Source: a virus. From it: 64,000 bases of DNA. Of the stretch, positions 27,042 through 62,539 are shown piece after piece. Below the pieces are notes generated by a model, which had not been told where the DNA came from, ran no database searches, and worked only from the letters and a program-made list of their open reading frames with translations. Position 1 is the first letter of the stretch. The number at the start of each line of letters is the position of its first letter. Both the position numbers and the translations under genes were made by a program. The stretch covers positions 128,001 through 192,000 of IMG/VR virus record IMGVR_UViG_3300045988_179014. One strand, 5' to 3'.

Positions 27042-28676
27042 TCACTGCTGCGGTTGTGGCCAAGAGTTGGGGATTGTGACTCCTTCAGGAATACTAGGTG
27101 GCAACGGTTCTGCTGGTTTATCCATGTCCAAAATAGCTGGTCGTTCTGGAACACTGGTACATCCAGCAGGTTTGGGCGGGATGCTGACAGATGGACTGGG
27201 TGAAGGTGCAGGAATGGTGGGTTGAGGAGTCACCCCAACAGATGGCGATGGCTCAGGAACAGGTGGAATGACAGGGGTACGGTTCTGCTGGTCATAGAGT
27301 TCACCCCATTGTTCCTCCCATCGTTTCAACTCATCCTGTTTGGTTTTACATGTTTGCAGTTTTTCGTTGTATGTATTGGATGCAGCAGCTTTACGGTCAT
27401 CAAAAGAACGCCAGTCATTGTGCTGTTCAACATAGGAATACCATATTTTACGAATCTTGTTGCGTTCTGTGATTAACCAAGACCACTTGCTGTGCACTTC
27501 ATCCACTTGTTGTACATAATTGTTCCAGGCGTCAGCTTGTGGGGCTGTCAATGCCATTTTGAAAGACCATTGAAGTTTACTATCCACATACTCTTGAGCT
27601 GCTTTATCCAGTTCGTTTTGTTTTGATTCCAGCGATTGGTTCTTTTCAGTAATCAGTTTGTTCGTATCATACACAGGAGATTTCTGCCCACTCCATGACC
27701 ATCCACAACCAGGTCCAGCAATGTCCGCAACATGATAAAAAGCCTTGTCCGTGAAATCGGTCTGGTCTGCGATTTTTTGTGGTAATTCGGGTTTTGTAAC
27801 GGTTGCTGGTAGTTGCGGAAAACCTGATGGCAATGGAGCTTCTGGTTCAACTGCTTTCGGATTTCCAATTTCCAACAAATTGATTGATGTCGGATTGGGG
27901 AGATTGTCAATTTTCACTGTTGTATGCAATTCTGTGTACTGCACTAAACCTGTGTATGCATCTTTGTCATAGAAAAAACTACGTTTGGCGTCATCTGGTG
28001 ATACTGTGAGGGAAACACATTGGGAAGCTTGTAAACTTGTTGTCATTTCTGTTGAGTAGAATTGCAACAAAATGTCCCGTTGTTCTGAATTGCTTGCTGT
28101 GACTCCAATAATGGCATCTCCCATGGTAATCATGAATGTATTACCTTGAACAGCCACAATCCCATGCTCTTTTTGTGTTACGGATACTTTGCCACATTTT
28201 TCCAATGCAGCTACATAACTGTGGAATGCTTGGTAGGCTTGCCCAGCACCGTAAACCTGTATGCGAGTTTCTACACCGCTTCCTGTTGCTGTAGTCGTGG
28301 CCAGAAGACTGTTGGGGACATCACCAATGCTTCCACACAGTGAAGGATTGATGACATGTTGGGGTTTGGCTCCTTCACTCACTTTCCATTGGTCCACTCC
28401 AGATGGTTGTTTGGCAATCAATTGAGAAGCCCATGTGACAGCTGGCGATTTGGTGCTGGCGATGTCTTGGTAGGGACTGATTTTTTGCGGCTCTTCAAAC
28501 AAATGATTATAACTTGCATACCCTGTATGGACCATTCCAGCAAATGCAATCAAAGTTGCTACCAAAAACATGAGATATAAAACAGGTTGATTGAAAATCC
28601 AAGCAATTAAAGGAAACTTGATAATACTACTTTCCTTGTAATCTCGGTAACGTTTGCGAACCATGTTTCTCCTCAT
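27042..28676 (-). CDS. Membrane-anchored protein with Pro-rich C-terminus (544 aa)
   Basis: N-terminal TM. C-terminus PVIPPVPEPSPSVGVTPQPTIPAPSPSPS. Confidence 0.55.
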   Translation of the reverse strand: MRRNMVRKRYRDYKESSIIKFPLIAWIFNQPVLYLMFLVATLIAFAGMVHTGYASYNHLFEEPQKISPYQDIASTKSPAVTWASQLIAKQPSGVDQWKVSEGAKPQHVINPSLCGSIGDVPNSLLATTTATGSGVETRIQVYGAGQAYQAFHSYVAALEKCGKVSVTQKEHGIVAVQGNTFMITMGDAIIGVTASNSEQRDILLQFYSTEMTTSLQASQCVSLTVSPDDAKRSFFYDKDAYTGLVQYTELHTTVKIDNLPNPTSINLLEIGNPKAVEPEAPLPSGFPQLPATVTKPELPQKIADQTDFTDKAFYHVADIAGPGCGWSWSGQKSPVYDTNKLITEKNQSLESKQNELDKAAQEYVDSKLQWSFKMALTAPQADAWNNYVQQVDEVHSKWSWLITERNKIRKIWYSYVEQHNDWRSFDDRKAAASNTYNEKLQTCKTKQDELKRWEEQWGELYDQQNRTPVIPPVPEPSPSVGVTPQPTIPAPSPSPSVSIPPKPAGCTSVPERPAILDMDKPAEPLPPSIPEGVTIPNSWPQPQQ

Positions 28677-28736
28677 ACACGCATTTCAACAGATGTTCAC
28701 ATTGTAACGAGAATGAGTCAGGGACAAGTACGGAGA

Positions 28737-28885
28737 ACGATTTTAAGCGAGATTTAGCGGTTTCTTGATGCAAGTATCACAAACAAGCATTTCGCATAAA
28801 TCTTCTTGAAAACATGAAAAACACCCCTGAATAAGCTAGGTACAATCTAGCCTATTCTAGGGGCGTTACAGAACGCGATTTTATG
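28737..28885. promoter_or_regulatory. Copy 2 of dispersed intergenic element (hairpin + T-run + conserved box)
   Basis: Contains ACGATTTTAAG...GTTTCTTGATGCAAGTATCACAAACAAGCATTTC...CTTGAAAACATGAAAAAC + hairpin CCCCTGAATAAGCTAG/CTAGCCTATTCTAGGGG + GCGTTACAG. About 80% identical to copy 3. Confidence 0.6.
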
Positions 28886-28912
28886 GTTTTCTCATATACT
28901 CATTTTTGTGGT

Positions 28913-29884
28913 TTATGATGGATGTTGATTGGTCGAACTGGAAACAGCTTCCTTGTTGCTACTGGTTGAGCTTTGATTAACTGGATTCGTGTTGGGAGCG
29001 GAAGTGGCTGATGGTTCTGGGTTGGAAACAGATGGAGAAACAGTTGGAGCGGATTCTGAAACATGAGAGTTATCAGAATTATTGTTAGAAGAAACTGCTT
29101 GTTGTTTCTTCAACACAGTAATTTCGTCTTGCAATGATTTAATTGTTTCATCATAGTTTTTGGATTCCTTCAAAGCGTCCAATTCTGTTTGAAGTTTTGC
29201 ATTCTGTTTCTCCAACTCTGTAATACGTGTTTTCAATGATTCATCCGAACTTGTTTTTTCAGTTTCATGAGCTTTTGCTGCTGCCAAGTTGATGATGTCA
29301 TGTTTTTCATCTTCACTGATTGTAGCCATGGTTGTGGTGTGAACTGTGGTGTAATTACTATCAGTGTTTACATTACTGGCTGAGATGAGATAGCTGCTTC
29401 CGATTGTGAGCATTGATACCATGAGGAACAACGCAGAAAATTTCAATGTTGGATGAGCAGCAGAATATCTCCTCAACCTATTCCACCAAGATGATTTGGA
29501 TTCGCTCACATCAGAGTCCAAATCTACAGTAGGATGTGTGTTTTCATCTGTTGAGGCGGTTTCATTGCTGTTGGAACGTAATCCAGGAACAATCTTTTTG
29601 GCTCCTAAAGATGTGACAGAAAGCACAACTCTATAGAACTCACTCAAGAATGCAGAACCTACAGATACCAAACCAACAAGAATCAAACTGTTTATGAATC
29701 CGGTCAATTGTGATGAAATGAGTGCCATGGAAACGGCAGTCAAAGCTGTTCCCACCACTTTCAACAATGACAGATTATCACCATCTTTCAAAATCTTTCG
29801 TATGGTGTGTTTAATGTTGTGTGTATTGTTCTCAGCGTTGGTTTCTGTTCTTTCCTGATTGGTTTCTGTAATAGTTGTTGACAC
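28913..29884 (-). CDS. Membrane protein with coiled coil and Ser/Thr-rich tail
   Basis: Three TM segments, a coiled-coil (LQTELDALKES...), and an S/N/P-rich C-terminus. Confidence 0.5.
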   Translation of the reverse strand: MSTTITETNQERTETNAENNTHNIKHTIRKILKDGDNLSLLKVVGTALTAVSMALISSQLTGFINSLILVGLVSVGSAFLSEFYRVVLSVTSLGAKKIVPGLRSNSNETASTDENTHPTVDLDSDVSESKSSWWNRLRRYSAAHPTLKFSALFLMVSMLTIGSSYLISASNVNTDSNYTTVHTTTMATISEDEKHDIINLAAAKAHETEKTSSDESLKTRITELEKQNAKLQTELDALKESKNYDETIKSLQDEITVLKKQQAVSSNNNSDNSHVSESAPTVSPSVSNPEPSATSAPNTNPVNQSSTSSNKEAVSSSTNQHPS

Positions 29885-30003
29885 CTTTCAAACCCCGTGC
29901 AAATATTGTTGTTGTGCATATTGTTCTCTACAAAAGCTGAGAGCGCCCTTATCAGTTCTCAATGACTGAACAGGACGCCCTCGGAGCCTATTTGTTTATA
30001 TCG

Positions 30004-32100
30004 TTATTCAGTTGTGGACCTGATGAAGTTGATTACCAGGTTGGATTGGATGTCACGAGCGTTAGCACCATTTCCCGCACCTTGGAACAATACTCCATCC
30101 AAATTGTTGGTTGTGCCAGTTCCAGTATTGGTGTGGAATGCGTCAACAGTTGGTGTTTGAGACTCAGTACCATAATTGGCGTAACATTTACCTTGAATAC
30201 TTGTTGTCAATGTCACGGCCTCGCCAGTTTTTTGAGCCCCGTTTGCACCGAAACCAACTTTACTGGCGAATACATTGGTTGAAACATTAGGTGCATACTC
30301 CCATTTCAGGTTTAGAACTTGTGGTTTGTTCTCTTCAGATGCCCAAGTGGATTTGACGTTGAATTCACGATGCAATCCACTCAAAACTGTAGAAGTGGCA
30401 TTGGAGAATGTTCCAGTGTTCCAGTTGCGTTGATTTTCTGGTTTCTGGTTGCCAGTAAACAGTTGGTTTCCATCTTTTGTGGTCATTGTGAATTTTCCAC
30501 CATTACTGTCAGAGATACCAGGAGTTCCCTCATTCCAACGAGTAATGGTTGTGGTCAATGGGGCAGAACCATCATAGGAAACTACACCTTCACTCTTTGG
30601 ATACCACACATCAGCACTAATGGTTTTGTCCTGATTGTCGCGGAACAATTCAAAGAAGTTGGAATTGGAATCTGTAGATTTTGCTCCATATTTTGAATCG
30701 TTGGTTATTTTGTTTTCCCCAACTGGTTTGTTCTCAATATTGTCAACTGCTCCATTGGTTTTTGAAGCACCATTACCTGTAGCAGAAGGAGCACACTCGA
30801 ATGGGCATTCCTTGTCATAGAAGCCGAGTGAAGCAGTTGCGGCCATTGCAGCATTCGGATTTTTTGCGTCACCAAAATCCAGCACTGATGGTTGACGGTC
30901 ATATTTCTTTGAATATGCCACTGCTGAAATAGCTTTAGTTGAATCCCCAGAATCCAAAACTTTGATTCCATTACCTGCGGCCACCAAAGCGTTGAAATCG
31001 GCTTGGTTACAGTGAACAGAAATCATTTGCCAGAAACCAGTGTTTTGCAGAGTTCCGGTTACTTTACTGGCTGTACTGACTTTGCTTACTTGGTCGGAAT
31101 CGGAACATTCCCTGGTTGGAGCAGCATAAGCACCAGCCGCAGCATCCCATTTCTGTGTGTAACGACAAGTAGTTGTAGTAACCGTAGTAGTGGTTTCCGT
31201 AGAACTTACTGTGGCATACTGTGTTTGTTCATAAACGTTAAGCACACCACCTTCTGCCATACCAGCTTTATTCTGTTCATCAAGAGTTACATCTGACCTG
31301 TCAATTTTCGCATCTTTTTCCAACGCATCATTAACAGCAGCAGTCAACTCAGCTGGAGACATTCCTTGGTTTTGTGCAGTGTTCAAATTATCCCACAAAC
31401 GACCATAATTGCTCTTAATAGGTGTTCCACCTTGGTTGTGAAGATTGTCAGCACCAATAGGGTCTTTACCACCTACACTGATTTGACGTTTGATTTCAGT
31501 GGACCAAGAATAAGGATGTGTGTAATTCACGGTTTCTGTACTGGTGTTTGTTTTAGATGATGTTTCAGTCCATGTACGGTCAGGTTGTGAGAACGCACCA
31601 GAACAAATAACGGTGTAACCAGGTTTGGAATCAATTTTATGTCCATTTTCGTTTCGGTCCCAACTGTAAAATGCTTGAATCTCCCCTACGCTAGGACCAC
31701 GATTACCAAACTGCCATTGTGGGTTTTCAATAGTACCTTTATATGGCCAATTGTGGGTACGTCCAGAAAAGTTGAAAATCCACTCTTTGGCTGTGGTGGA
31801 ATACACATACCAGATAACATTGGATTTTTCACAAACTTCAGTTCCGCCCACTCTCTGTCGTACTTGTTTAATGGCAAAATTACGACTCAAACCAGAACGT
31901 GACAAGAATTCTGACCATGCTCGACCAGGTTCGTTGTAGCCAATTGAGTTCCATTGAAATCCGCTTCTTGTAACACGACGAGTGCTGCCGCCACCACCGG
32001 TACCACCACCAGTATCCGCATTAGCCATGATTGGTACTGCAAACACCATCGCTAGAGCCACCGTAACGGCAGCGAACCAATGTGCAAAATGCCTTTTCAT
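30004..32100 (-). CDS. Secreted protein (698 aa) with signal peptide and Thr-rich linker
   Basis: MKRHFAHWFAAVTVALAMVFAVPIMANA signal peptide, a GGGTGGGGS linker, and a TTTTVTTTT stretch. Confidence 0.6.
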   Translation of the reverse strand: MKRHFAHWFAAVTVALAMVFAVPIMANADTGGGTGGGGSTRRVTRSGFQWNSIGYNEPGRAWSEFLSRSGLSRNFAIKQVRQRVGGTEVCEKSNVIWYVYSTTAKEWIFNFSGRTHNWPYKGTIENPQWQFGNRGPSVGEIQAFYSWDRNENGHKIDSKPGYTVICSGAFSQPDRTWTETSSKTNTSTETVNYTHPYSWSTEIKRQISVGGKDPIGADNLHNQGGTPIKSNYGRLWDNLNTAQNQGMSPAELTAAVNDALEKDAKIDRSDVTLDEQNKAGMAEGGVLNVYEQTQYATVSSTETTTTVTTTTCRYTQKWDAAAGAYAAPTRECSDSDQVSKVSTASKVTGTLQNTGFWQMISVHCNQADFNALVAAGNGIKVLDSGDSTKAISAVAYSKKYDRQPSVLDFGDAKNPNAAMAATASLGFYDKECPFECAPSATGNGASKTNGAVDNIENKPVGENKITNDSKYGAKSTDSNSNFFELFRDNQDKTISADVWYPKSEGVVSYDGSAPLTTTITRWNEGTPGISDSNGGKFTMTTKDGNQLFTGNQKPENQRNWNTGTFSNATSTVLSGLHREFNVKSTWASEENKPQVLNLKWEYAPNVSTNVFASKVGFGANGAQKTGEAVTLTTSIQGKCYANYGTESQTPTVDAFHTNTGTGTTNNLDGVLFQGAGNGANARDIQSNLVINFIRSTTE

Positions 32101-32101
32101 T

Positions 32102-33157
32102 TTATTCGTCCACCTTTAGGCTTGCGTCATCAATCAGCACGGTATGTTTACTGTCGTTCAAGCCTGTTGCATTTGATACGAGTTTCAGGGTTAATGTACC
32201 TGTTTTCTCTAACTTACTTTGGTCTTTGGCCCAAGCAGTGAATTGTACTTGTGCGGTAAGATTCACTGTATATTGCTGGGTTGATTGGTCATATGTGAAT
32301 TCAGTATTGCTGGAAGTAATTTTGCCATACCAACGCGGACCAGATGTAAGAAGTTTATCCCCCAAATTGTAGTCATTCCCAGCCCAATCAGCATATACTG
32401 GCACATATTCTGAAAACGGTTTAGTAGCATTCTCCGTTATCCATCGAGCTGTAAACATGTCGGAAATGGAGTTAATGTTGAATTCAGTATTACCAGGATG
32501 ACCAGAATATTGATTCAGCGCCCATCCCCCAAAAGTTGGATTCAGTAAACGTTCAAGATGCGCTCCAACTTGAGCATTAAATGATTCAGCAGTCCAATAA
32601 CTGTATTGAGGGTTGAGACTTCCATCTTCAAGTGTTTGTTTATCCGAATCTGCTGTATAACCTGATTCCTCTGAGGGAAGACTATTACCAGCCAATCCAA
32701 CCTCAGTTGAGTTCATAGTAGCAATAATTTTGGATTTTATCTCAGATTTGTCTTGTTCCTCATAGCTTTTTGTTTGCCAATCCTCCATAGATGTTGGGAA
32801 GAACAAACCTTCCTGTCTGTAGAAATCTTCAGGGGTGAGCGCATCAGATGGAGGTGGCACAGACGGCGCAGCCACAGTCGCATCTGTCATATCCTGTTCC
32901 CCATCGCCAACATTTTGATTACCCCCCAACGGATTCCATAAAATCAAACTGGTAACAAGAGCAGCAATAGTTAAACCTCCACCCGTAAAAATGGCAGCCC
33001 TTTTAATCCTTTCAGGTTTTTGTGCCTGTCTAAGGGCTTTATCTTCTTTCTCCCGGTCCTTAGCATCAGCAGTGATTAATTCTTCAATGGAAAGAATTTT
33101 ATCACTGTCATTTTCCGGAAGGGGAGGAATGTTCAGGTTGTCTTCTACCTTGCTCAT
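32102..33157 (-). CDS. Bitopic membrane protein (351 aa)
   Basis: TM AAIFTGGGLTIAALVTSLILW after an acidic cytoplasmic N-terminus. Confidence 0.5.
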   Translation of the reverse strand: MSKVEDNLNIPPLPENDSDKILSIEELITADAKDREKEDKALRQAQKPERIKRAAIFTGGGLTIAALVTSLILWNPLGGNQNVGDGEQDMTDATVAAPSVPPPSDALTPEDFYRQEGLFFPTSMEDWQTKSYEEQDKSEIKSKIIATMNSTEVGLAGNSLPSEESGYTADSDKQTLEDGSLNPQYSYWTAESFNAQVGAHLERLLNPTFGGWALNQYSGHPGNTEFNINSISDMFTARWITENATKPFSEYVPVYADWAGNDYNLGDKLLTSGPRWYGKITSSNTEFTYDQSTQQYTVNLTAQVQFTAWAKDQSKLEKTGTLTLKLVSNATGLNDSKHTVLIDDASLKVDE

Positions 33158-33235
33158 TGTTCTCCAACTTTGTTGACATGAATAAACAAATAATGTTCAT
33201 GCCGAATATCATCACACTGGAAAACAAAAACCTTG

Positions 33236-33796
33236 TCAGGGCAGAATCATGAACAAACCTGTTATCAATGCAGAACACAAAATCGGTATGGGGAAAGAAA
33301 CACGAGAACGATTCTGGAACTCGTTGTAATGTTCCTTCAAACGATTGGGTATTTGTGCAATATTTAATGTGGGACGTTCACCCATGGAATGCAACACAAT
33401 CATCTGACGAATCATGCCCCATCCAGCAAGCATGATTAATGTTGTCATAACAAAAATAGCCTGAAAATGCCAACCCAGATACCATGGTGACAATCCCAGA
33501 AAAGCCAGAATCGCCCCATAGTCCATAGAATTCAAACGTTTTCCCAATAAACCAGTCAACACAATAACAATACTTAATGCAACAATACCTTGGAATAGTT
33601 GAAACCATGGAAACACTTGGTCAACCAGATAATGACTCAATGCATTAATTGAAACCATAAGAAAATATATTGGCAAGATTTTTCGTAGTGATGTTTTGAA
33701 TAGTTTTACAAGGAGAAGACCAATGATAAGCGACCCTAAATGTAATGCGAACATTGTTTCCAAAAATGCCATGTCAATCATCAATTCTGGTTCCAC
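33236..33796 (-). CDS. Polytopic membrane protein (186 aa)
   Basis: Five or six hydrophobic helices. Confidence 0.5.
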   Translation of the reverse strand: MEPELMIDMAFLETMFALHLGSLIIGLLLVKLFKTSLRKILPIYFLMVSINALSHYLVDQVFPWFQLFQGIVALSIVIVLTGLLGKRLNSMDYGAILAFLGLSPWYLGWHFQAIFVMTTLIMLAGWGMIRQMIVLHSMGERPTLNIAQIPNRLKEHYNEFQNRSRVSFPIPILCSALITGLFMILP

Positions 33797-35046
33797 TCTT
33801 GCAACAAATCCAGTTCATCATCGCTGTCTTCATCTTGACCATTCAAAAAAGTGATATGTTGTGATGTCTTGGATTCATCAATGATTTCAACAGTGCTCAT
33901 ATTTTGGTTGTTTTTGTCATGCGTTGAGTTGAAAACATGGGCTTCGTTGTTCTGTTTCTTGTAGTTAAATGGCTGATGTGGTAATCCTATACCAGAAAAA
34001 CTTGGTAGTGGCTCATCATCTGAAGCTATGAACAATGATTCTTCATCTGTTTCCACATTGTTCATGTATCCATCATCAACATTTTGAACAGGTGGTAACG
34101 TATCTTGGTCTTCCAAACGTTCTTGTAAAGCGGCTAAATTGCTTTTCAACTGATACACTTCATCATGCAGTTCTTGGTTTTCGATTGACAGTACTGAGAA
34201 CTCATCCTGTAAAGACTCAAACTTCTGTCGTTCCTGGCTGCTGAGACCATCATCTTTGGATTGATTTTGTTCTTTCAATGATTGTACAAGAATTCGTAGC
34301 CGCTCATTTTCTAGCGTCAGCTCATCATGATTTGCTGTTGGCATGATGTTGATACCATTGGCAATTTCTGCTTCATAACGAAGATTGTGCGCATCCACCT
34401 GTAATCTGTCCACAGTTGTTGCCAATTTTGCAATATGTTCATTACGCAGTTTCAGCAATTCCACCAGTTTGGATACTGTGGTTTTTACTTGAGATAGGAA
34501 ACTGTCCACTTGTCCCATTTCGTAACCTTGAGGAACTTGTAAATCAAATTGGATGTCTACAAGGTCTTCTGGAAGGAAAACGTCATTGTCAATTTCAAAG
34601 GTTGCTGGAATTTGTAGTACTTCCAACACATCTTTGATAGCATTCTCATCCACAGGTTTCAAGTTATCCTCAGTGGTGTGAACTTCTGAATGTTTGTCAT
34701 GTGTATTTGATTGTGTTTGAGAATAGTTGTAATCATCATCAATTGCGAAAGCGGATGTGTCATCGAATTTTACATCATTGACCATTGTGTTTTCAGTATT
34801 TTCTGGTATTGATGATGCTGTTTCAGATGTGTTTGAATCAGAGGAATCTGTAGTACCCTCATCCTTCTCTGCGATAATTGGCTCCACTTTTGGTGCAGTA
34901 ATTCGGGGCATGATTTTGCGTGTTTTAGGTTTACGAATTCTAGGTTTTGGAAGAGTTTTGGATTTCTTCTCATCGTAGTCAACCACTTTGATGGTTTCCT
35001 CGCCAAACCCTTGAACCACACTAGCTATTTTGTTTTTGAGCCCCAT
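33781..35046 (-). CDS. DivIVA-domain-like coiled-coil protein
   Basis: FDLQVPQGYEMGQVDSFLSQVKTTVSKLVELLK matches the DivIVA N-domain pattern (F..rGY...VD.FLd.v). Followed by a long coiled coil. Confidence 0.4.
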   Translation of the reverse strand: MGLKNKIASVVQGFGEETIKVVDYDEKKSKTLPKPRIRKPKTRKIMPRITAPKVEPIIAEKDEGTTDSSDSNTSETASSIPENTENTMVNDVKFDDTSAFAIDDDYNYSQTQSNTHDKHSEVHTTEDNLKPVDENAIKDVLEVLQIPATFEIDNDVFLPEDLVDIQFDLQVPQGYEMGQVDSFLSQVKTTVSKLVELLKLRNEHIAKLATTVDRLQVDAHNLRYEAEIANGINIMPTANHDELTLENERLRILVQSLKEQNQSKDDGLSSQERQKFESLQDEFSVLSIENQELHDEVYQLKSNLAALQERLEDQDTLPPVQNVDDGYMNNVETDEESLFIASDDEPLPSFSGIGLPHQPFNYKKQNNEAHVFNSTHDKNNQNMSTVEIIDESKTSQHITFLNGQDEDSDDELDLLQEWNQN

Positions 35047-35101
35047 ATATGATTCCTTACCATAACAATCCGTGGGATAAAAGTTGTTTCAAATTCAAAT
35101 A

Positions 35102-35461
35102 TCAATGTCTGTTCAAATCACGAATTGCATCACCATTAAGGAATTCCGCCTCTGTGTAATAAGGTGATTCCCCAGTTTCGACGGTTAACAGCTCCATCCA
35201 CAACTTCAAATATTCAAGTCGAATGAATTCATAATTTTGTTTCAACCAAGCATTGTCCATGACTGTGTAATTTATGCGATTTATCAATTCGTCTGGATAG
35301 AATGGGGGAACTCTGCCCTCATCAGCACGTAACCTCAATTGTTCATGTAATGCAATAACTTGGTCCAAACCATTCATATAATCACAAATAAGAGCATCTG
35401 CAAGACCTGGGAACTCCGTCGGACGTTTATCAGCCATTTTTAACGATTCTCCTAAAGCCAA
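35102..35461 (-). CDS. Hypothetical protein (119 aa)
   Basis: ORF in the tiling. No motif recognised. Confidence 0.45.
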   Translation of the reverse strand: MALGESLKMADKRPTEFPGLADALICDYMNGLDQVIALHEQLRLRADEGRVPPFYPDELINRINYTVMDNAWLKQNYEFIRLEYLKLWMELLTVETGESPYYTEAEFLNGDAIRDLNRH

Positions 35462-43197: not shown

Positions 43198-43199
43198 TA

Positions 43200-43661: not shown

Positions 43662-43664
43662 TCT

Positions 43665-44117: not shown

Positions 44118-44174
44118 GAGTCCTCACTATGATGTGTAAAAATGTCCTGACCTGCGCTTATTTTACCAATGGGA

Positions 44175-44208
44175 AAGGGGCCACTCCTAGATAATGGAGT
44201 GGCCCCTT
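44175..44208 (-). terminator. Strong hairpin (13-bp stem AAGGGGCCACTCC/GGAGTGGCCCCTT) immediately downstream of the HU gene
   Basis: Perfect GC-rich inverted repeat with a 7-nt loop, located 20 nt past the HU stop in the transcription direction. Confidence 0.55.
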
Positions 44209-44228
44209 GTAATCCGAAAAGATGTCAA

Positions 44229-47365: not shown

Positions 47366-49654
47366 TTATTTCAATGTTTGAAGCTCTACCACTTTATCCG
47401 CTATCGCATCAATGGAATCATTATGTGCAATTAGAATAACCTGCCCTTGACAGACTTCTTTGATAGTGGAAAGAATAAGTTCAGCACGGTTGGCGTCTTG
47501 GGAAACCAAAACTTCATCAAGAATAATGAGATTACGCGACGCTCCACCATTCAACAACATGGAAATGGACAAACGTAACGCCATTGCTGCTGCTGACAAT
47601 TCTCCACCTGAAAGAAGACCAACAGCTCGTTCAGTCCCATCAGCCAACATAACAGTTGCCTTGAATTGTGCATCCAGTTTCAACCTAGTAAACTTACCCT
47701 CTGTAAATCGGTTGAGAAGGTCTGAAGCATAAATCTCAATAACAGGAATGGAATTGGTGATACGGTCCTCTCGGAATTCCTCAATCACTTTTGTTGTGGT
47801 GGCAGCTAATTCAACACTTTTCAAAACTGCACGATGTTTGTTCAGTTGCTCCTCATAAGATGCAACCTGACGGCTCAAATTGTCAAAACGTTCTTTGGCA
47901 ACATTCAAATCAATTCGTGCTGTTGCCAAATTTGCAGCCTTGGATTTTTCAAGTTCCAAATTCTTGTCCAAAACTGCGCGTAATTTCTCCAAGGACTGTG
48001 GTGTTACAGAACCTGTCGATTTCAATTTGTCCCGACCATTCTGAAGCCGTTTCTCAACTATCTCGATTTCTCGTGACAATGTTTGAGCACGTTCCAACAA
48101 TCGGTCATACTCTGCTTTTACACTTGCCTGCTGTTTCGCTTCATTATATGCATCTTCCAAAGTTGTTAACTGTGTTTCAATTCTTTGGATAGATGTTAAT
48201 GTATTATCGAGATTTTCACGAAGTGTTGATTCCTCTTGAGTTTCCAGCACTTTCAAAGCATCAATCAGAAGTTCAAATTTCTCTATTGCCGTTTCACTTC
48301 TGTCAAGGGCATGTTCCAACTCAATACGTTTTACCCGTAATGTCTCTACTTGTTCCTGTGCATGGATTATCTCTGTCTGCAATGTTTCAACCACTGTGGA
48401 AACATCATCCACGTGCTGAAGACAAGTAGGACAAGCACCATTTTCTCTTTGAAGCACTGTAATGGCTTTTTCCAGTTTTTTGATATCAGACGAATGAGCA
48501 GCACAAGTTGAATCCAGTGTACGAATTTGTTGTTCCAACACACTCACACGTTTGACGGCTTTATCCAATCCTGTAGTAGCACTGTCCAAATCTTTGATTG
48601 ATGATTTGTCCACAAGTTGTTGTGCTTCTGAACGAGAATCACAGATGTTTTTCAATAAACGCTCTAAATCAGACTTTTCAATGTCCAATGAACGTAATTC
48701 ATGTTTCAATCCATTAATTTGTGATTCCAGTTCTGTTAAATCCGTATTCCCCAATAAATGATTAAGCTGTTTCTTTTTTGCCTCTTTTTCTTTAATAATC
48801 ATGGCAAAAGTTGTCTGCATTGATTCTAATTTGGCTTGAAGTGTGGCAATCCCATGACGAACTTCTTCCATCGAAGCAACTTGCTCTGCTTTTACATGTA
48901 TTTCATCACGTAATTTGTTTACTTTTGCAGAGATTGTGTCATGTGTTGTAACTGCTTTTGCTTCAATACTTTGAGTCTTATGGAAGATGGCAGCTTGTTT
49001 CTCCAACTCCTGACGTAATTGGTTCAGTTCTTCTTCGCTGACATCAGAAAGAGCAGCCGCTTTACGGAGAGTGTTGCTTTCTTGACGGGCATTGTCCAAA
49101 GCTGCGGTAATGGATGAGATACCAGTTAATTTCTCAATAACAAGTGCCCGTTCTCTAGGAGTGGCAGAGACTAAATGGTCCACTTGTTTCTGTTGCACAA
49201 GCACGGAGGCAAGAAATCCTTTTTCATCCATTTTCAAACGTTGCCGAATGTATATTTCAGCATGCGAAACTCCGGGACCGGCCACTTGTTTAGGAGTAAG
49301 ATTCCCATGACCATCATCAGTCAATTCCCACACTTCGCATTCCACCGTACCACTTTTGCTAACCATACGACGTTCAATGAGTAATGGTTGGTCATCAACT
49401 TCAATGTTCAACCGAACGAAGCATTTGTCTTTTCCGAATTTGGCTCCATTGCGATAAATAGCAGCTGTTTTGGATACCCCATGTGGCTTTGTGCCAAACA
49501 GTGCCCATGCGATTGAATCCACAATTGTTGATTTACCTGTACCATTGGCTCCGCTGAGAGCAGTGATTCCATCAGATTCGGGCTCAAAAACCACATGAGA
49601 ATGGGAACGAATATTTGAAAGTTCAACACGTGTGAGTTTAATCATGATGTCCAC
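47366..49654 (-). CDS. sbcC: SbcC/Rad50-family ATPase with CPTC zinc hook
   Basis: N-terminus LSGANGTGKSTIVDSIAWALFG. Central coiled coil with NGACPTC hook. C-terminal LSGGELSAAAMALRLS signature + ILDEV D-loop. Confidence 0.85.
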   Translation of the reverse strand: MDIMIKLTRVELSNIRSHSHVVFEPESDGITALSGANGTGKSTIVDSIAWALFGTKPHGVSKTAAIYRNGAKFGKDKCFVRLNIEVDDQPLLIERRMVSKSGTVECEVWELTDDGHGNLTPKQVAGPGVSHAEIYIRQRLKMDEKGFLASVLVQQKQVDHLVSATPRERALVIEKLTGISSITAALDNARQESNTLRKAAALSDVSEEELNQLRQELEKQAAIFHKTQSIEAKAVTTHDTISAKVNKLRDEIHVKAEQVASMEEVRHGIATLQAKLESMQTTFAMIIKEKEAKKKQLNHLLGNTDLTELESQINGLKHELRSLDIEKSDLERLLKNICDSRSEAQQLVDKSSIKDLDSATTGLDKAVKRVSVLEQQIRTLDSTCAAHSSDIKKLEKAITVLQRENGACPTCLQHVDDVSTVVETLQTEIIHAQEQVETLRVKRIELEHALDRSETAIEKFELLIDALKVLETQEESTLRENLDNTLTSIQRIETQLTTLEDAYNEAKQQASVKAEYDRLLERAQTLSREIEIVEKRLQNGRDKLKSTGSVTPQSLEKLRAVLDKNLELEKSKAANLATARIDLNVAKERFDNLSRQVASYEEQLNKHRAVLKSVELAATTTKVIEEFREDRITNSIPVIEIYASDLLNRFTEGKFTRLKLDAQFKATVMLADGTERAVGLLSGGELSAAAMALRLSISMLLNGGASRNLIILDEVLVSQDANRAELILSTIKEVCQGQVILIAHNDSIDAIADKVVELQTLK

Positions 49655-53798: not shown

Positions 53799-54311
53799 TT
53801 AAAGCAGATGGCCTGTCACAATAGTGCCATCCGGAAATCGAACCGTAACTAGATGATTTTCCCTCCTTGAATACATGGTAGAAGCATTGGTCCCCTCATT
53901 ACCAGAGCAAACCAATGTAGAACTAGCATACTGATTCGGTTCAGTTTCGTCAAGTTCATCAACCAGTGGGGTTTCGAAATCATGTCCTTGTATGTGTTCA
54001 ACGTGTTCAAGTTCACGGTTAGTGGGTTCATGAACATATTGTGGATGAAAATCCTGCTCGTTTTGGGCGACGGCATTGGCTTTCTCCAACATGTCCTGAA
54101 AACCAACCACATCATCACTATCGAATCCTGATGTGTCATTCACCAATACCCCGTTTTCAGTTAACTCATTGCGAAGTTCGGCTACCATTTGTTGGTCCCA
54201 TGGTGATAATGTCGGCAAAGGAGAACGTAAAGAGGCATCAAAATCATCTGCTATTGATGCCACAGGAATTGTACGAGAATTCTCATCAACTGTAGAAGAA
54301 TCTTGACTCAT
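53799..54311 (-). CDS. Acidic hypothetical protein (170 aa)
   Basis: ORF. Acidic composition. Confidence 0.45.
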   Translation of the reverse strand: MSQDSSTVDENSRTIPVASIADDFDASLRSPLPTLSPWDQQMVAELRNELTENGVLVNDTSGFDSDDVVGFQDMLEKANAVAQNEQDFHPQYVHEPTNRELEHVEHIQGHDFETPLVDELDETEPNQYASSTLVCSGNEGTNASTMYSRRENHLVTVRFPDGTIVTGHLL

Positions 54312-54331
54312 TACCTGCCTCCCTACTGACC

Positions 54332-54754
54332 CTAAGTAATTAGATACCCATTACGACATTGCAGCATGTTCACCGTAATATCATTGACCAACAACTCCAA
54401 GTTCTGATTCTCCACAATTGTTGACAACTCTTTCAACACTTTATGGTCTAAATCAAGTACTACATTTTTGTGGTCTTGTAAATATGCAATGCCTAAGGCA
54501 ATTTTGGTCTTACCATCATCATTGTCCGTATAAGCTCTTACAAATGATTGATAGAATTCTCCGTCCATAATAGCAGGGAAGATAGGGTCAATGGTAATAG
54601 GATTGATGTAATTGAACACAGAATACATAAAACGTGCGGATTGCCCGTTTTCATCAGCTAACATATTGCTCATTTGAGATGAAATGTTAATCTTGTTGAT
54701 AGAATCGGTTGTATTTCGTAGCTGCTCCAGTAGTTCCAGAAAGGAGTTAGCCAT
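54332..54754 (-). CDS. Hypothetical protein (140 aa)
   Basis: ORF in the tiling. Confidence 0.45.
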   Translation of the reverse strand: MANSFLELLEQLRNTTDSINKINISSQMSNMLADENGQSARFMYSVFNYINPITIDPIFPAIMDGEFYQSFVRAYTDNDDGKTKIALGIAYLQDHKNVVLDLDHKVLKELSTIVENQNLELLVNDITVNMLQCRNGYLIT

Positions 54755-54780
54755 TGTATTCCTCTTTTCGAGATTAACGA

Positions 54781-55035
54781 TTAACCATTCATGTAATACT
54801 GGAAACCAAAATAAATAAGCGCCATCACTATTACTGCAACTACGAGAATTCCCAATACTCTCATAACCGTAAAAGTAACACGAACCTTCTTCTCACTCAC
54901 AGAACTGTTTTTGTATTTTTTGGTAGTTGTTTTGGATTGAGTGTTGGAGGCACGTTTTAGGTCTTCTACTTGACGTACTTCTGGGTCCTTCAGTCGCCCA
55001 GTTTTTCCCGCTTGTAACTCTTCAAATAGCATCAT
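54781..55035 (-). CDS. Small C-terminally anchored membrane protein (84 aa)
   Basis: C-terminal TM VLGILVVAVIVMALIYFGF. Confidence 0.4.
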   Translation of the reverse strand: MMLFEELQAGKTGRLKDPEVRQVEDLKRASNTQSKTTTKKYKNSSVSEKKVRVTFTVMRVLGILVVAVIVMALIYFGFQYYMNG

Positions 55036-55658
55036 TCACCTTCTTCAACAGCAGGAACCTCATATCTGGACAAAGTAGAACCCAGAACATGGTCTTTGTG
55101 AACAATAAAAGCCTTTCCAGGAACACAAGCCCCAGAAATGCAAGTTACCAAATACTCGTCATTAAGATATGAAGCACGTTTCAGCAATGGAGATTCTATG
55201 CCTTCATTTGGCGGAAAATTTGCATCAACCAATTCTCCATCCACAGTTAAAATACCAGGTGGAGCCCATGTGAGTTTTCCATAAGGACCAGCTACCACAC
55301 TTACAACAGCATAATCCCCACCTGGCACAAAAGCTTGCCTCAAATGGTCCAGAAACCCTTTTTCTTCAGGATTTTTCACATTGACCAGAATTTGGGCTTG
55401 AGCTGGAATCATGCCTCCACTGTAGGTAATGTTTTTGACAGGCACCAAACCCGCTCCTGAGGTGGTGGGGACAACACGAAGCAATGTAGCGGCAAAAACT
55501 GTGTACAACAAAACAACAGCACAAAAAGCGATGAACAGACCTCGCCCTATTTTTTTGAATAGCAAGGAATTATATGCTGACCGAGCCAAACGAACTTGAG
55601 GTTGATGTTTAGGTGTTGAATCTGGTGTTGTTGAAGTACGCCGAAAAACTTCTGCCAT
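55032..55658 (-). CDS. Bitopic membrane protein (208 aa)
   Basis: TM GLFIAFCAVVLLYTVFAATLL. Confidence 0.5.
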   Translation of the reverse strand: MAEVFRRTSTTPDSTPKHQPQVRLARSAYNSLLFKKIGRGLFIAFCAVVLLYTVFAATLLRVVPTTSGAGLVPVKNITYSGGMIPAQAQILVNVKNPEEKGFLDHLRQAFVPGGDYAVVSVVAGPYGKLTWAPPGILTVDGELVDANFPPNEGIESPLLKRASYLNDEYLVTCISGACVPGKAFIVHKDHVLGSTLSRYEVPAVEEGE

Positions 55659-55694
55659 GGAAAACCTTCCCGCTGAAAACGAATACTGGCAATA

Positions 55695-56267
55695 TCAGAT
55701 GAAAAACAATCCAGAAATAATCATCACAACCGCAAGGACACCCACGATAGTCTTGATTTTATGCGCTTTCATCCAAGTCACAAAATCATTTATCTTGTCT
55801 TTGATGGATTCTTGTGTGAGTGTTGTTTTGTTTTTAGGTGCAATACCGAAATAAGCACGTCGAACATCTTCCAGTTGTTTTGCTAAATGCTGTGACAGTT
55901 CTTTTGTAAGAATTAATTCAACTTTGTCGCCTTGGCTTGATGTGACTTCCAGAATTGGGGGGTCATTCTTCATGAAAATTGGTTTTCTTACATCTCCATT
56001 AGGAGTCCGAAAATTCAGCACTTGCACCATCACAGCACGGTCAGTTTGCTTGAATAATGCCATTACGTCATCTTCATGAACAACTTTGTCGTCCCCGGCA
56101 AGAAACAATTCATCATCATCAAAATAAGAATCTGTTTCAGAGTCTTCATCAATCAAATCATCATCATCCACTTCTTCGATGAAATCTTCTGCATCCCACT
56201 TGGATTGATTCTCAAGGTTGTTAGCAATTACAGAATCGGATTCTTTTATGGTATTTTTATCATTCAT
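55695..56267 (-). CDS. Acidic tail-anchored membrane protein (190 aa)
   Basis: Extremely acidic N-half and a C-terminal TM. Confidence 0.5.
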   Translation of the reverse strand: MNDKNTIKESDSVIANNLENQSKWDAEDFIEEVDDDDLIDEDSETDSYFDDDELFLAGDDKVVHEDDVMALFKQTDRAVMVQVLNFRTPNGDVRKPIFMKNDPPILEVTSSQGDKVELILTKELSQHLAKQLEDVRRAYFGIAPKNKTTLTQESIKDKINDFVTWMKAHKIKTIVGVLAVVMIISGLFFI

Positions 56268-56327
56268 CTGCTAATTCTTTCTCCCGATTTCAACTGTTCC
56301 TATTGTATCGGTTATCATTCATACCTC

Positions 56328-57194
56328 TCAGCTGGGGGAACTGCTAGCACTAGGTGTGGATGTTGCAACTGGAGTATTTGAGGGTGTATCAGATGGGATT
56401 GTAGTGGCCTTAATAGTATCAATCAATTTAAAATCGAACTGAGTATTGGCATAAGCATCCGAATTAGGGGTATACCATGTTGCCAAAAGAAATTGGTTTT
56501 TCAAATCTGTTATGGAGTAAAGTTTCCACTGTCCGTTTCCATCTTTCGCAAAAGTCAAATTCGCAGTATTGTTAGCAAAAGTTTTTTCCATAACATTGAA
56601 GGTTCCATCCCAAGCTGAATCATTAATAGTTTGAATCCGTTGAGTCGCCACTGAAGTAAAATTAACCGTCACAGTAGCAGCTGTGTGTTGTTTGTCTCCA
56701 ATGTTGACATATGAACCAGTTTTTTTAGTTGTGGCAGACACAGAATCAACAGTGTATCCAGTCAAATTTTGCAATTCATTCTGATTAGTCCATTGAGATA
56801 CAGCACGGTCATCGTAAGATAGAGGGGAACCAGCAAAAACATGAGGTTTCAACGCTGCATATGCCGATTCACGTGAAACGAAAAAGTCTTTGGCTTGATT
56901 AGGGTTAGAGCCAATCAAGTATTGAGCATTCATTATGTTGTCCCCAGTTAAAGTGTTGGGACGAACCCCAAAATTTCCAGCGATGGACAATAGCTCTTTT
57001 GCACGACTGGACAACAACACTTGGTCCTGATTATCGATTTCCACCTGTGACGTAATTTCAGGAGTAGTTGGTTCCTCATTCGGGGTTGTCCACCACACAG
57101 CCAGAAGAACAGTAGCAACTGCAACACTCAATACACCCACAATCAAATAAATCAGCCGATTACGTGTGGTTTTTTCATCAGTTTTGTCAGTCAT
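56328..57194 (-). CDS. Bitopic membrane protein with extracellular domain and S/T/P-rich C-terminus (VirB8/TcpC-like topology)
   Basis: N-terminal TM LIYLIVGVLSVAVATVLLAVWW followed by an about 230-aa ectodomain. Confidence 0.5.
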   Translation of the reverse strand: MTDKTDEKTTRNRLIYLIVGVLSVAVATVLLAVWWTTPNEEPTTPEITSQVEIDNQDQVLLSSRAKELLSIAGNFGVRPNTLTGDNIMNAQYLIGSNPNQAKDFFVSRESAYAALKPHVFAGSPLSYDDRAVSQWTNQNELQNLTGYTVDSVSATTKKTGSYVNIGDKQHTAATVTVNFTSVATQRIQTINDSAWDGTFNVMEKTFANNTANLTFAKDGNGQWKLYSITDLKNQFLLATWYTPNSDAYANTQFDFKLIDTIKATTIPSDTPSNTPVATSTPSASSSPS

Positions 57195-61800: not shown

Positions 61801-62539
61801 TGGATGTTAAAGCTCCAATAATACCGCCATCTGAACGACCAGTGCCACCAATCACTTTGAGTAGATTGAGACAGCTGCCATTTGGATGTGCTGGGTCAGG
61901 ACAAATAATGTTAGGGTTAAAAGCGCTGACGGCAATGAATTGAGCCACGTTGGTTACTAGTCCAGAAAGACTCATTAGCCCATCGGCAACCCATGGAAGA
62001 GCTTGCATGAAACAGTTGGACCAAGCCGACCGTGTTTTCTCCAGCTTTTCAGCATTTTTCTGATAGTACGTGTCAAAACTGGCATTGCCACCATCAAAAG
62101 TTTTCAGTATCCCGTCAGCTACTTCGGGTTTTTTCTTTGATTTGGTCCAGGGGGCGTCTTTGGCTTCGCCTTCACCTTCGTAAGCGACAAATCCTAACCC
62201 GCCACCTAAAGCTTCTTGCATTGTCCAAGTGCGACCACTGCTGTCAGGTTGTACATATCCACCCACTACTGTGTTACGCCAACCATCTTTACGGTCCATT
62301 CCTAAACCTGTTGTATAAATGCATCCAATTTCTGGACTACCTGCTTCAGCAGTATTAATTAAATTGGATTGTTTCTGTGTCAGTACACTACTGGCGAAGG
62401 GTTGTAATGCGAGTACAACAGCGAGCATAGCAAAGACACCAGCAATCAATCCTAGAAAAGGATGACGCTGATTGTGCGACACTTGAGAAGTCGCGAAATT
62501 CTCGTCAATATACGAGGAGCCGTTTGCACGCTTAATCAT
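58856..62539 (-). CDS. Giant polytopic membrane protein, paralogue C (1227 aa) with long cytoplasmic coiled-coil/Pro-rich C-terminus
   Basis: TM cluster. WKAFVLEPY and WYRVIMASAADEG blocks shared with paralogues A/B. Gly-rich AGAGGAIGGMVATG. About 450-aa charged coiled coil. Confidence 0.7.
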   Translation of the reverse strand: MIKRANGSSYIDENFATSQVSHNQRHPFLGLIAGVFAMLAVVLALQPFASSVLTQKQSNLINTAEAGSPEIGCIYTTGLGMDRKDGWRNTVVGGYVQPDSSGRTWTMQEALGGGLGFVAYEGEGEAKDAPWTKSKKKPEVADGILKTFDGGNASFDTYYQKNAEKLEKTRSAWSNCFMQALPWVADGLMSLSGLVTNVAQFIAVSAFNPNIICPDPAHPNGSCLNLLKVIGGTGRSDGGIIGALTSSIYYPLLVIVVTVAGFWVAYLGLVKRKFREALFGALWITLSVIFGLALLLNPALLAKAPMAVSNAVSTCVIGAFNGQNCMGGSSTQIDYNEGESTSDKICMSAASGATLDEQMSLTANSITCSIWKAFVLEPYTQASFGASFADLDTKASDSPFRAKLKETDLNPDMYCVSLGSSGSVNDQGNTLSLDAPNKNRVCNLMAYQMYLSVNAQSDGDPNFTTNDFDPRWYRVIMASAADEGLWTHWSNDLSSGIGKINVAGMSFIVSVLGTFIIFVVSLFALIYYISSLILLSFGALFFLLGVHPGRGKRILFGWLEKVIAAVLKYLASAVFLVVAIAIYGGILGNLSNMGLTLLFVVIVTMALFMYRRELMNLVGRVNMGGEQLSSSMADKLRSRAENMGSFGKNLALAGAGGAIGGMVATGANPFQKGGWGELRRASISGLKDGAKRQLKRSSGLVGNIARQYDRNSVDNKQDMRAKMQDAAAAETTAATTRDERETDLRDAQDTLASFDEQADDKNQRLQQVEENYRGVRNMEHQILDDFREKTHADRVAQLRDIRNGNFSEEEKTERISAVNDAYDEAQDFAQLQDLKNLLSDSKLQLNIAINSGDMGKAAILQDQIDQYSDRARRLASGISTDRLANYQNEYDSILAKEIDAAGMDKLDASALNELQELRTFDATQAADRRRLEQEIVHAGEALNDAERAHAEAAIKSKAYGDAFINMRPGDGLTDRGVQRVEEQINREMIAQNLETKKEQKARLGRKEDDREVFNPTQVVVPDAPTKSDFVAGESERAARTNTSNRRNAYEAQRKNSLRDRGMTPRPPAPRDEDIPPVDYPEEDSFFEQHVDEIPLPPVDTTSSTPATPTTPQTNGAKSPHAPNKDEQAAKARRIREAIVQREAAKAEQLEQSRRNETPRQEVGNMGLNEAQKLYAESERLKREVAQLEAKQSDLSGKALRALQAEIRGRRRKAAELYQRASKLDDSK

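Follow-up and report, generated by a model that had tools for sequence, protein, structure and literature searches.

A probable conjugation-type secretion gene set with three giant VirB6-like proteins on an element filed as a virus

We analysed a stretch of 64,000 nucleotides (hereafter the window; positions 128,001-192,000 of the IMG/VR record IMGVR_UViG_3300045988_179014, with all coordinates below given in the window) and, within it, the region 27042-62539, where an original prediction made from the letters alone had placed an envelope-spanning machinery. Every plausible gene of the window lies on the minus strand, including the co-oriented open reading frames (ORFs) of that prediction, which were all found where it had put them, and GC content is about 42% throughout (41.9%). 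The region encodes three giant polytopic membrane proteins (giants 1, 2 and 3), a secretion ATPase and a membrane-anchored wall hydrolase. We consider it probable that these genes make up most of the gene set of a conjugation-type (Tcp/ICEBs1/Tn916-type) type IV secretion system (T4SS) carried by a giant plasmid-like element of a host with a single membrane of the Gram-positive type, because genes for a VirD4 coupling protein, TcpC-like and TcpD-like proteins and the N-terminal half of VirB4 (VirB4-N) adjoin the region in Tcp-like order, and because the giants have family matches to TrbL and NF046089 and a matching fold. The same evidence supports the predicted Gram-positive, conjugation-like apparatus with a VirB6-like core.

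The giants are the only set of large paralogues in the window (pairwise BLASTP). As predicted, they are both polytopic, with 7-11 hydrophobic segments each by simple hydropathy, and mutually homologous, sharing a membrane core of about 400-680 residues at about 22% identity (BLASTP E = 1e-29, 4e-23 and 3e-22). The short motifs proposed as common to all three are exact or nearly so in giants 1 and 2 (NWAIYQ/NWALYQ, WWRIVD/FYRLVD and W..F....W..GQ[FW]GT) but degenerate in giant 3, and in the third the F and the following W are separated by 4 residues, not by the 5 proposed. The giant 1 ORF of 1035 amino acids (aa) shortens to 1010 aa with the start at 38542 that most gene callers choose; the overlap between giants 1 and 2, of 86 bases for the ORFs and 11 bases with that start, suggests co-expression.

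Giant 1 lies above the gathering threshold of the Pfam TrbL/VirB6 family PF04610 (29.6 vs 25.9 bits), giant 3 lies under it (17.7 bits) and giant 2 has no match, so that giants 2 and 3 are assigned as VirB6-like on account of their paralogy with giant 1 (E = 1e-22 to 1e-29). All three match NCBIfam NF046089, the CD3337/EF1877 mobilome membrane protein (51.8, 27.3 and 59.6 bits for giants 1, 2 and 3; E = 5.6e-14, 1.5e-6 and 2.3e-16), and none reaches its curated cut-off of 120 bits, which makes them related to, but outside, the family as curated. Homologues of giant 1 form 95 clusters, metagenomic without exception, of which 45 were aligned. The AlphaFold model of giant 1 (mean predicted local distance difference test (pLDDT) score 77.6, predicted template modelling score 0.64) has two clusters of long helices with a beta-rich domain between them, followed by a helical tail; its fold matches TrwI/VirB6 and DotA and contains the helical membrane bundle seen in TrwI. 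Foldseek returned the same ranking, with a probability of 0.90 for 7o3v and E-values that are not significant. TcpH of pCW3 shows marginal similarity (hhalign with the giant 1 profile, probability 22%, E = 9.5e-4; phmmer E = 0.002-0.007). Taken together, these data support a VirB6-like identity for the giants.

Outside the shared core, the giants diverge. The cytoplasmic tail of giant 1 carries an invariant Cys4 zinc ribbon (C789/C792/C820/C823 in the 1010-aa numbering) that is ZZ-like (Foldseek 6mj7) and is found in neither giant 2 nor giant 3. Certain longer giant 1 homologues (e.g. P0080, P0083, P0086 and P0094) align over about half of giant 1 and carry an M23, VanY, transglycosylase-like or Exo_endo_phos domain; these enzymatic domains appear to sit N-terminally, in place of the ectodomain. 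Searched in isolation, the ectodomains and tails of the giants matched nothing in Pfam.

The exact ATPase and giant 3 proteins also occur on a 337,400-bp ENA contig (ERZ27262748 k119_28504), on which we read 10-20 kb past the right window edge. Running towards the window, the genes encode a DnaG primase, proteins of 166 and 534 aa (both without assigned function), an 804-aa VirD4/TraG-type coupling protein, a 575-aa TcpC-like protein, a 119-aa protein with two transmembrane (TM) helices, the 465-aa VirB4-N, a 272-aa GmrSD_C/His-Me nuclease, a 286-aa NikA-like protein, two TadE-like proteins, PhoH and then giant 3. The genes for VirD4, TcpC-like, TcpD-like, VirB4-N and NikA-like proteins thus lie 2-9 kb beyond the edge, so that the predicted lack of VirB4, VirD4 and a relaxase applies within the window but VirD4, the N-terminal half of VirB4 and the TcpC-like protein appear just past position 64000. 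The coupling protein, about 7 kb out, has three N-terminal TM segments and a Walker A motif and matches Pfam TraG-D_C (E <= 1e-5, precomputed), TrwB_AAD_bind (faintly) and NCBIfam TraD-type models. The 575-aa protein exceeds the threshold of the TcpC family PF12642 (29.2 vs 27 bits), which supplies a VirB8/TcpC-like component outside the window; the 119-aa protein gives a faint TcpD signal, the NikA-like ribbon-helix-helix protein scores 32.9 bits vs a threshold of 27, and TadE scores 36 bits. About 10 kb further than the hydrolase follow the CpaF/VirB11-family ATPase, the second VirB6-like gene (giant 2), the first (giant 1) and seven conserved, probable envelope proteins.

The nuclease (L008:16241-17059) is conserved as part of the cluster. 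It was considered as a relaxase but rejected, since it begins with an N-terminal signal or anchor. Extracellular nuclease domains are present both in this protein, as GmrSD_C/His-Me, and in some giant 1 homologues, as Exo_endo_phos.

The 465-aa protein (L008:14832-16229, about 4.5-6 kb beyond position 64000) is the N-terminal half of VirB4/TcpF. It matches positions 8-428 of the 813 positions of the NCBIfam TcpF model (E = 1e-17), and its AlphaFold model (pLDDT 77) matches the TrwK/VirB4 chains of R388 (Foldseek E = 6e-13, probability 1.0), the best non-VirB4 match reaching only E = 0.5. The family comprises 206 clusters, and the 120 listed are all 448-489 aa long and without Pfam annotation. 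When 1.8 billion representatives were searched exhaustively with a profile, some 50 stand-alone proteins of VirB4-N size ranked first; next came proteins of 780-850 aa that aligned only over their first ~440 residues and have a Walker A motif at ~475, that is, full-length VirB4s. A profile of the C-terminal ATPase half recovers TcpF of pCW3 at E = 3e-71. In low-GC relatives a separate gene of ~400 aa for the ATPase half stands 3 kb upstream of the N-half gene, and in the groups with GC of 27% and 49% it stands 90-175 kb off on the same contig (stand-alone ATPase halves at L110:6014-7231, L133:1980-3179 and L137:1971-3188). Since relatives encode the two halves in separate genes, VirB4 is split across the family, and its ATPase half may be missing from this element. 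The closest relative, a 309 kb contig, has a VirB4-N marker that is 71% identical.

Giant 3 lies six genes downstream of VirB4-N and, in 26 IMG/VR contigs, is likewise found downstream of it, so that a polytopic inner-membrane protein is encoded together with VirB4 and VirD4, as is characteristic of VirB6. It is also the best counterpart of the lone VirB6-like gene beside full-length VirB4 in loci L014-L046. In distant relatives that gene directly follows VirB4, and by position we regard giant 3 as its orthologue. In one near-identical element (VirD4 98% identical; L008:20854-22415), gene calling splits giant 3 into two genes (273 and 972 aa), possibly a frameshift or an assembly variant.

The secretion ATPase belongs to the T2SSE superfamily (PF00437, 93 bits vs a threshold of 24.9), and the motifs needed for catalysis (Walker A, Asp box, Walker B, His box) are all intact in it. 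Among solved structures in the PDB it is nearer to CpaF (128 bits) than to Brucella VirB11 (83 bits). In NCBIfam it scores 131.6 bits with VirB11 and 129.7 bits with the conjugal-transfer-associated TadA model, each well under its cut-off (for VirB11, TIGR02788, 249.95 bits). Judged by sequence, then, the ATPase is closer to CpaF/TadA than to VirB11. Its core is 60% identical in the relative L010.

The wall hydrolase has an N-terminal membrane anchor, with TM segments at residues 117-153, and a lysozyme domain of the Phage_lysozyme2 family at residues 202-347, a peptidoglycan hydrolase domain that also matches the lysozyme domain of phi29 gp13 (3csq). The predicted lysozyme half is thus well founded, but the CHAP half was not confirmed: residues 356-537 gave no match in Pfam or in a PDB sequence search. 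This C-terminus does show a Cys430/His486/His502 pattern and a weak pairwise similarity (E = 5.5e-4) to the NlpC/P60 domain of a neighbouring gene, and it is plausibly a papain-like (NlpC/P60-type) peptidase. We regard the hydrolase as an analogue of CwlT/TcpG; its place after giant 3 is conserved among relatives. The bitopic proteins of the window do have the VirB8/TcpC-like topology ascribed to them, but neither they nor the secreted proteins of the window have any detectable family or VirB8/TcpC homology.

The whole gene order is conserved at 24-71% identity among relatives whose GC spans 27-64%. VirD4, VirB4-N, the nuclease, NikA, two TadE-like genes, PhoH, giant 3 and the hydrolase are kept in twelve IMG/VR contigs (GC 37-57%); the same layout recurs in two contigs of GC 27%, with most genes present and PhoH not detected, and in an 828 kb JGI contig of 55% GC. 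Twelve contigs of GC 30-37% have a shorter form consisting of VirB4-N, the nuclease, a NikA-like gene and one VirB6-like gene. The second cluster, from SbcC and the ATPase through giants 2 and 1 to the seven genes beyond, is fully syntenic in the 64% GC relative L010 (24-47% identity), in which the giant 2 orthologue has 1317 aa and 42% identity. On the same contigs of GC 37%, 49% and 57%, VirB4-N is followed about 30 kb downstream by giant 1 orthologues; a pattern scan detected none in the low-GC contigs, which is not proof of absence. Across relatives all three giants are full-length, at 33-44% identity. The longest contigs with homologues of giant 1, VirD4 and VirB4-N are equal in size (92.8, 78.5, 697.6 and 727.6 kb), which suggests that the three genes sit on the same contigs.

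More distant relatives, on contigs of up to 885 kb, have VirD4, TcpC, full-length VirB4 and one VirB6-like gene in the order of pCW3, and in one of them a gene for a CpaF-like ATPase follows after another 8.5 kb. We read this single-VirB6 arrangement as the ancestral layout and giant 3 as the original VirB6. In light of these relatives, the original prediction was fair in calling a triplicated core something other than a textbook arrangement.

The backbone of the element can be followed from GC 64% (L010/L011) through 57% (L102-L105), 49% (L097-L101) and 42% (the window) to 27% (L108-L109), a range that would point to hosts as far apart as low-GC Bacillota and, probably, Actinomycetota. A search with two profiles of one genome per GTDB species found no relatives. 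The 828 kb contig (L012; JGI 3300062451 Ga0540622_0000002, 828,236 bp, local GC 55%), which carries the same T4SS synteny, resembles BF3 in size and GC. BF3 (841,704 bp, 55.4% GC) has been described as the largest genome of any phage, in a paper whose text mentions no terminase or capsid gene (bioRxiv 10.1101/2025.01.14.633092).

Near-identical copies of giant 1 occur on contigs of 343,299-347,407 bp from independent assemblies, a recurrence that argues for a complete replicon of about 345 kb. We scanned about 115 kb of it, made up of the window and loci L005-L008, by searching most window ORFs of at least 100 aa and the main flank ORFs against Pfam and PHROG. This DNA encodes functions in replication, repair and the envelope, among them DnaB, a DnaC-like protein, DnaG, single-stranded DNA-binding protein, sliding clamp, DNA polymerase III delta, RecA, RecG, PIF1 helicase, SbcC, ribonucleotide reductase and ThyX, as well as a class A penicillin-binding protein (PBP) with PASTA, an NlpC/P60+G5 protein, an S26 signal peptidase, sigma factors, two RNA ligases and a homing endonuclease. 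None of the ORFs scanned, the giants included, matched a capsid, portal, terminase, tail or tape-measure family. A tRNA scan of the window and of five other loci, flanking or related, found no genes. Neither Megablast with 24 kb of sequence nor tBLASTN with giant 1 returned a match among 50,697 phage and 72,556 plasmid records; VirD4 had no match among the phage records and at most 27% identity among the plasmid records.

The features of the region are collected in Table 1.

Table 1. Genes of the region 27042-62539 and its right border, in window coordinates
Feature	Position	Strand	Basis
Seven conserved genes downstream of giant 1: 119 aa; 421-aa coiled-coil (DivIVA-like); 186 aa with 5 TM; 351-aa bitopic; 698-aa secreted; 323-aa TM + coiled-coil (faint TraB-like signal); 544-aa bitopic	27042..35461	-	Topology; synteny in L010, 24-47% identity
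VirB6-like giant 1, 1010-1035 aa	35510..38617	-	Ectodomain, two TM helix clusters around beta-rich domain, cytoplasmic tail with Cys4 zinc ribbon
VirB6-like giant 2, 1339 aa	38532..42551	-	~600-aa N-terminal ectodomain without recognised fold, TM core, charged tail
Gcn5-related N-acetyltransferase (203 aa), two small proteins (ORFs of 153 + 150 aa, called at 148 + 143 aa) and the HU-like protein of the next row	42586..44525	-	Pfam Acetyltransf_1, Bac_DNA_binding; syntenic in L010
HU-like DNA-binding protein, 98 aa	~44229-44525	-	Pfam Bac_DNA_binding
Two genes translationally coupled to the ATPase: 365-aa soluble protein (44958-46055; faint sigma-like signal); 118-aa TM protein with acidic tail	44602..46055	-	Overlapping start/stop codons
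CpaF/TadA-like secretion ATPase, T2SSE superfamily, 414 aa	46052..47296	-	Pfam T2SSE 1.8e-26
SbcC/Rad50-like ATPase	47366..49654	-	Pfam AAA_23, SMC_N, SbcC_Walker_B; phrog_77 1e-54
Sigma-70 family factor, 301 aa	52792..53697	-	Pfam Sigma70_r2 2.2e-8
Block of small conserved proteins without assigned function: bitopic 288 aa with Thr/Ser/Pro-rich end (56328-57194); C-tail-anchored acidic 190 aa; bitopic 208 aa; small membrane protein 83 aa (~54784-55035; marginal TcpE-like signal, phmmer E 0.1 only)	53799..57194	-	Topology
Membrane-anchored wall hydrolase, 537 aa	57234..58847	-	Pfam PF18013 (Phage_lysozyme2) 1.2e-26
VirB6/TcpH-like giant 3, 1227 aa	58856..62539	-	N-terminal TM, small ectodomain, TM core, ~590-aa charged coiled-coil tail
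PIN+PhoH ATPase, 468 aa, start just past window end	62664..64000	-	Pfam PhoH 6e-44, PIN_4

The seven genes downstream of giant 1 are probable envelope components of the same apparatus; their products have only weak family matches, none in PHROG. The block of small proteins before the hydrolase has no family matches. The 365-aa protein coupled to the ATPase reaches NCBIfam SigB at E = 0.0084 only and has a counterpart of 32% identity in L010. The SbcC/Rad50-like gene stands directly upstream of the secretion ATPase in L010 too, but its product, though syntenic with the module, probably serves DNA repair rather than secretion. The sigma-70 factor possibly regulates the module. Family-wide, the PIN+PhoH gene has the TadE-like genes on one side and giant 3 on the other. 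The left half of the window (3942-6314, 9067-13361, 13487-17302, 18246-18926 and 22371-24056) encodes a class A PBP with C-terminal PASTA, a MoxR AAA+ ATPase beside a VWA/metallopeptidase protein, a Bax1-I family membrane protein, RNA ligases of the PHA02142 and T4 Rnl1 types, and a phage-type homing endonuclease (phrog_3339, E = 2e-70).

If the region does encode a conjugation-type T4SS, we envisage that a relaxosome, with the NikA-like protein as its visible part, would nick the element, and that the coupling protein would pass single-stranded DNA into a membrane channel built of the VirB6-like proteins. The large ectodomains and the hydrolase may cross and open the thick wall; in relatives, the ectodomains appear to carry M23, VanY or DNase-I-type domains. 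A hexamer of the CpaF-like ATPase could power assembly or translocation, possibly through the TadE-like pseudopilins, working alongside or in place of the VirB4 ATPase half. The three paralogues would most likely join in a single hetero-oligomeric channel or stalk and not build three machines, and the cargo of the machine would be the element itself.

Several observations weigh against this interpretation. The ATPase-half profile found no VirB4 ATPase domain in the 115 kb of window and flanks, returning only marginal VirD4 similarity, and pattern scans of the element's 189 kb IMG/VR contig and of the 309 kb contig of the closest relative found no such half either. No relaxase family match was obtained among the ORFs scanned across the 115 kb, nor was an oriT identified there, for which no search was made. 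That one machine is built from both clusters, one holding giant 3 and the hydrolase and the other the ATPase and giants 1 and 2, is suggested by synteny, and transfer has never been shown for any family member. IMG/VR lists the element, as its 189 kb piece, as a viral genome, and genes of kinds typical of phages lie nearby, namely those for PhoH, a homing endonuclease and two RNA ligases. Finally, about 230 kb of the replicon falls outside the scans and could hold virion genes, Rep/Par or a second VirB4.

The alternative that survives best, although we think it unlikely, is a T4SS-derived machine that has ceased to transfer the element, or never did so, and acts instead in contact-dependent effector or adhesion functions or in DNA release or uptake, with giants 1 and 2, the ATPase and the TadE-like proteins forming a separate Tad-like fibre or secretion system. 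The nearness of the ATPase to CpaF among solved structures and the two TadE-like genes are in keeping with such a system, but a Tad-pilus reading was rejected because the searches detected neither a TadB/C platform nor an Flp pilin nor a prepilin peptidase. The failure to find a relaxase, or a VirB4 ATPase domain in the 115 kb, has to be set against VirD4 and the NikA-like protein, which are hallmarks of DNA transfer. Unrelated genes separate the two clusters by about 10 kb, yet the clusters stay linked over deep divergence. A non-transfer role would also accommodate the conserved secreted His-Me (GmrSD_C) nuclease, the giant 1 homologues with Exo_endo_phos, M23 and VanY domains, and the failure of the pattern scan, itself no proof of absence, to detect giant 1 in the low-GC relatives; against this, a replicon this large that is spread across hosts of very different GC needs a transfer route.

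Less likely again is a true jumbo phage, in which the giants, hydrolase and ATPase would form an envelope apparatus for ejection or entry, superinfection exclusion or cell-to-cell spread of DNA. IMG/VR does class this contig and at least 26 related contigs as viral, but comparable elements have been reported as misclassified in this way (PMC12340149; 10.64898/2026.02.21.707213), and one such group, the Inocles, is 16-fold enriched in the cell pellet (PMC12340149). PhoH, the Rnl1 and PHA02142-type ligases, SbcC, the homing endonuclease, the sliding clamp (phrog_947), ribonucleotide reductase and ThyX are neighbours common in jumbo phages, and the lysozyme domain resembles phage tail lysozymes. 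The scanned 115 kb nevertheless gave no virion-gene match, the giants have no structural match in PHROG, and neither giant 1 nor VirD4 has a tBLASTN match in the 50,697 deposited phage genomes; the coupling protein and the NikA-like protein point instead to DNA processing of the relaxosome type. The phage DNA-ejection apparatus that the original prediction had offered as an option likewise found no positive support.

It is very improbable that the giants are alternative or accessory versions that do not co-assemble (host-range or recipient-specific channels, or entry or surface-exclusion proteins of VirB6 origin), as might be argued from their unequal sizes, the unrelated sequences of their ectodomains and tails, the common swaps of ectodomains for enzymatic domains among homologues and the two-gene call of giant 3 in one near-identical element, because all three persist at full length across relatives, which argues for non-redundant roles, and the overlap of giants 1 and 2 suggests co-expression.

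Extending the conjugation-type reading to the whole group, we tentatively propose, as a possibility short of an even chance, that a deep and widespread clade of elements (0.2-0.8 Mb, GC 27-64%, Inocles included) shares a re-engineered monoderm T4SS with a split VirB4, its ATPase half perhaps lost here, and that the middle- and high-GC branch adds a tripled VirB6 and a CpaF/VirB11 motor with TadE-like pseudopilins. If true, such an architecture might permit the transfer of replicons far larger than ordinary conjugative plasmids, and it would break the rule that an intact VirB4 is the single universal component of T4SSs. A split or lost VirB4, if confirmed, would likewise challenge the use of intact VirB4 as a universal marker of conjugation and would explain why such elements escape plasmid-typing tools; the conserved protein of ~460 aa offers a marker by which all members of the family could be found. 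It was only in 2025-2026 that giant plasmid-like elements were recognised in Gram-positive bacteria associated with humans; such elements are common in people and routinely misfiled as huge phages, and how they move between cells has yet to be shown. For one such lineage, the region now itemises the components of the probable transfer machine. Elements of this kind, and T4SSs on them, are already published, and in full text only one preprint, on elements named Hodors, was found to join huge phages with VirB6. Relative to the Inocle and Hodor papers, what appears to be new is the tripled monoderm VirB6, the family-wide split of VirB4, the ATPase of CpaF/VirB11 type and the conserved secreted nuclease.

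Among known systems, the Tcp system of pCW3 from Clostridium perfringens, with its ICEBs1/Tn916-type kin, has the same order of coupling ATPase, TcpC, TcpD/E-like proteins, VirB4 (TcpF), hydrolase (TcpG) and VirB6 (TcpH), and the two share a hydrolase, here probably of two domains, a large polytopic VirB6 analogue, a TcpC Pfam match and a TcpF profile match. Sequence similarity to pCW3 is marginal, however, and the present system differs in that it has three VirB6 paralogues rather than one, has only the N-terminal half of VirB4, includes TadE-like proteins and a CpaF/VirB11-family ATPase as additions and uses a coupling protein of the TraG/VirD4 rather than the FtsK type; no TcpM-type or other relaxase was seen. 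VirB11 is not normally known from monoderm T4SSs. More than one large VirB6-like gene is also found in the rvh T4SS of Rickettsiales, which has tandem enlarged VirB6 paralogues but is a diderm, P-type system with full-length VirB4 and VirB11; tandem large VirB6 paralogues are not known from monoderm systems. TrwI/VirB6 of R388 and DotA of Legionella differ in that they, too, are from diderms; identity is ~10%, and giant 1 is four times the size of TrwI, with extra ectodomains and cytoplasmic domains.

Hodors are conjugative megaplasmids of the human gut, >300 kb and filed as huge phages, with VirD4 (787 aa), a full-length VirB4 (855 aa) and one giant VirB6 of 1339-1341 aa that is recognisable by fold only, with 7o3v as its best match (10.64898/2026.02.21.707213). 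The present element is like them in size, viral filing, VirD4, VirB4 (here as its N-terminal half) and a giant VirB6 with the same best fold match. Identity with Hodor G2, suggested by its 1339-aa VirB6 and a 469-aa PIN+PhoH protein, was considered and rejected: the Hodor protein table contains neither the lengths 1227, 1010, 759, 537 and 804 aa nor RecA and SbcC annotations, the neighbouring genes differ, and the module proteins have no BLASTP similarity (E below 1e-3) to the Hodor G2 VirD4-VirB4 loci. On this evidence the element belongs to neither Hodor G1 nor G2. The G2 VirB6, as listed in the Hodor supplementary table ST2, has exactly the 1339 aa of giant 2, probably a coincidence of length.

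Inocles are very large, plasmid-like elements hosted by oral Streptococcus, 245-395 kb long with GC of 24-32% (Kiguchi et al. 2025, PMC12340149), for which VirB4 and VirD4 are reported but no VirB6, ATPase or hydrolase (PMC12340149). Their InoC marker has a mean length of 454 aa, 64% identity between taxa and a PF13814 domain (PMC12340149). In Inocle-like loci L108-L121 (GC 27-37%), VirB4-N is 452-471 aa long and 82-89% identical among three groups, with ~50% identity to the GC 27% group. By length and conservation pattern InoC may be a half-VirB4; the 465-aa protein itself has no PF13814 match at E <0.05. Low-GC IMG/VR relatives (GC 27% at 244 kb; GC 30-37%) fit Inocle-delta and Inocle-alpha/beta/gamma by size and GC. 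The present element resembles Inocles in size class (343-347 kb), in having its genes co-oriented along the replichore, and in encoding a class A PBP, an S26 signal peptidase, an NrdH-like glutaredoxin, a sigma factor, a RecD/PIF1-type helicase, DNA polymerase III parts and VirB4/VirD4. It departs from them in GC (41.9% vs 24-32%) and in a marker protein that is just 34-38% identical to the low-GC groups. By GC it does not fit Inocle-alpha to -delta, and we place this plasmid-like extrachromosomal element of ~345 kb instead as a deeper relative within a broader Inocle-like family.

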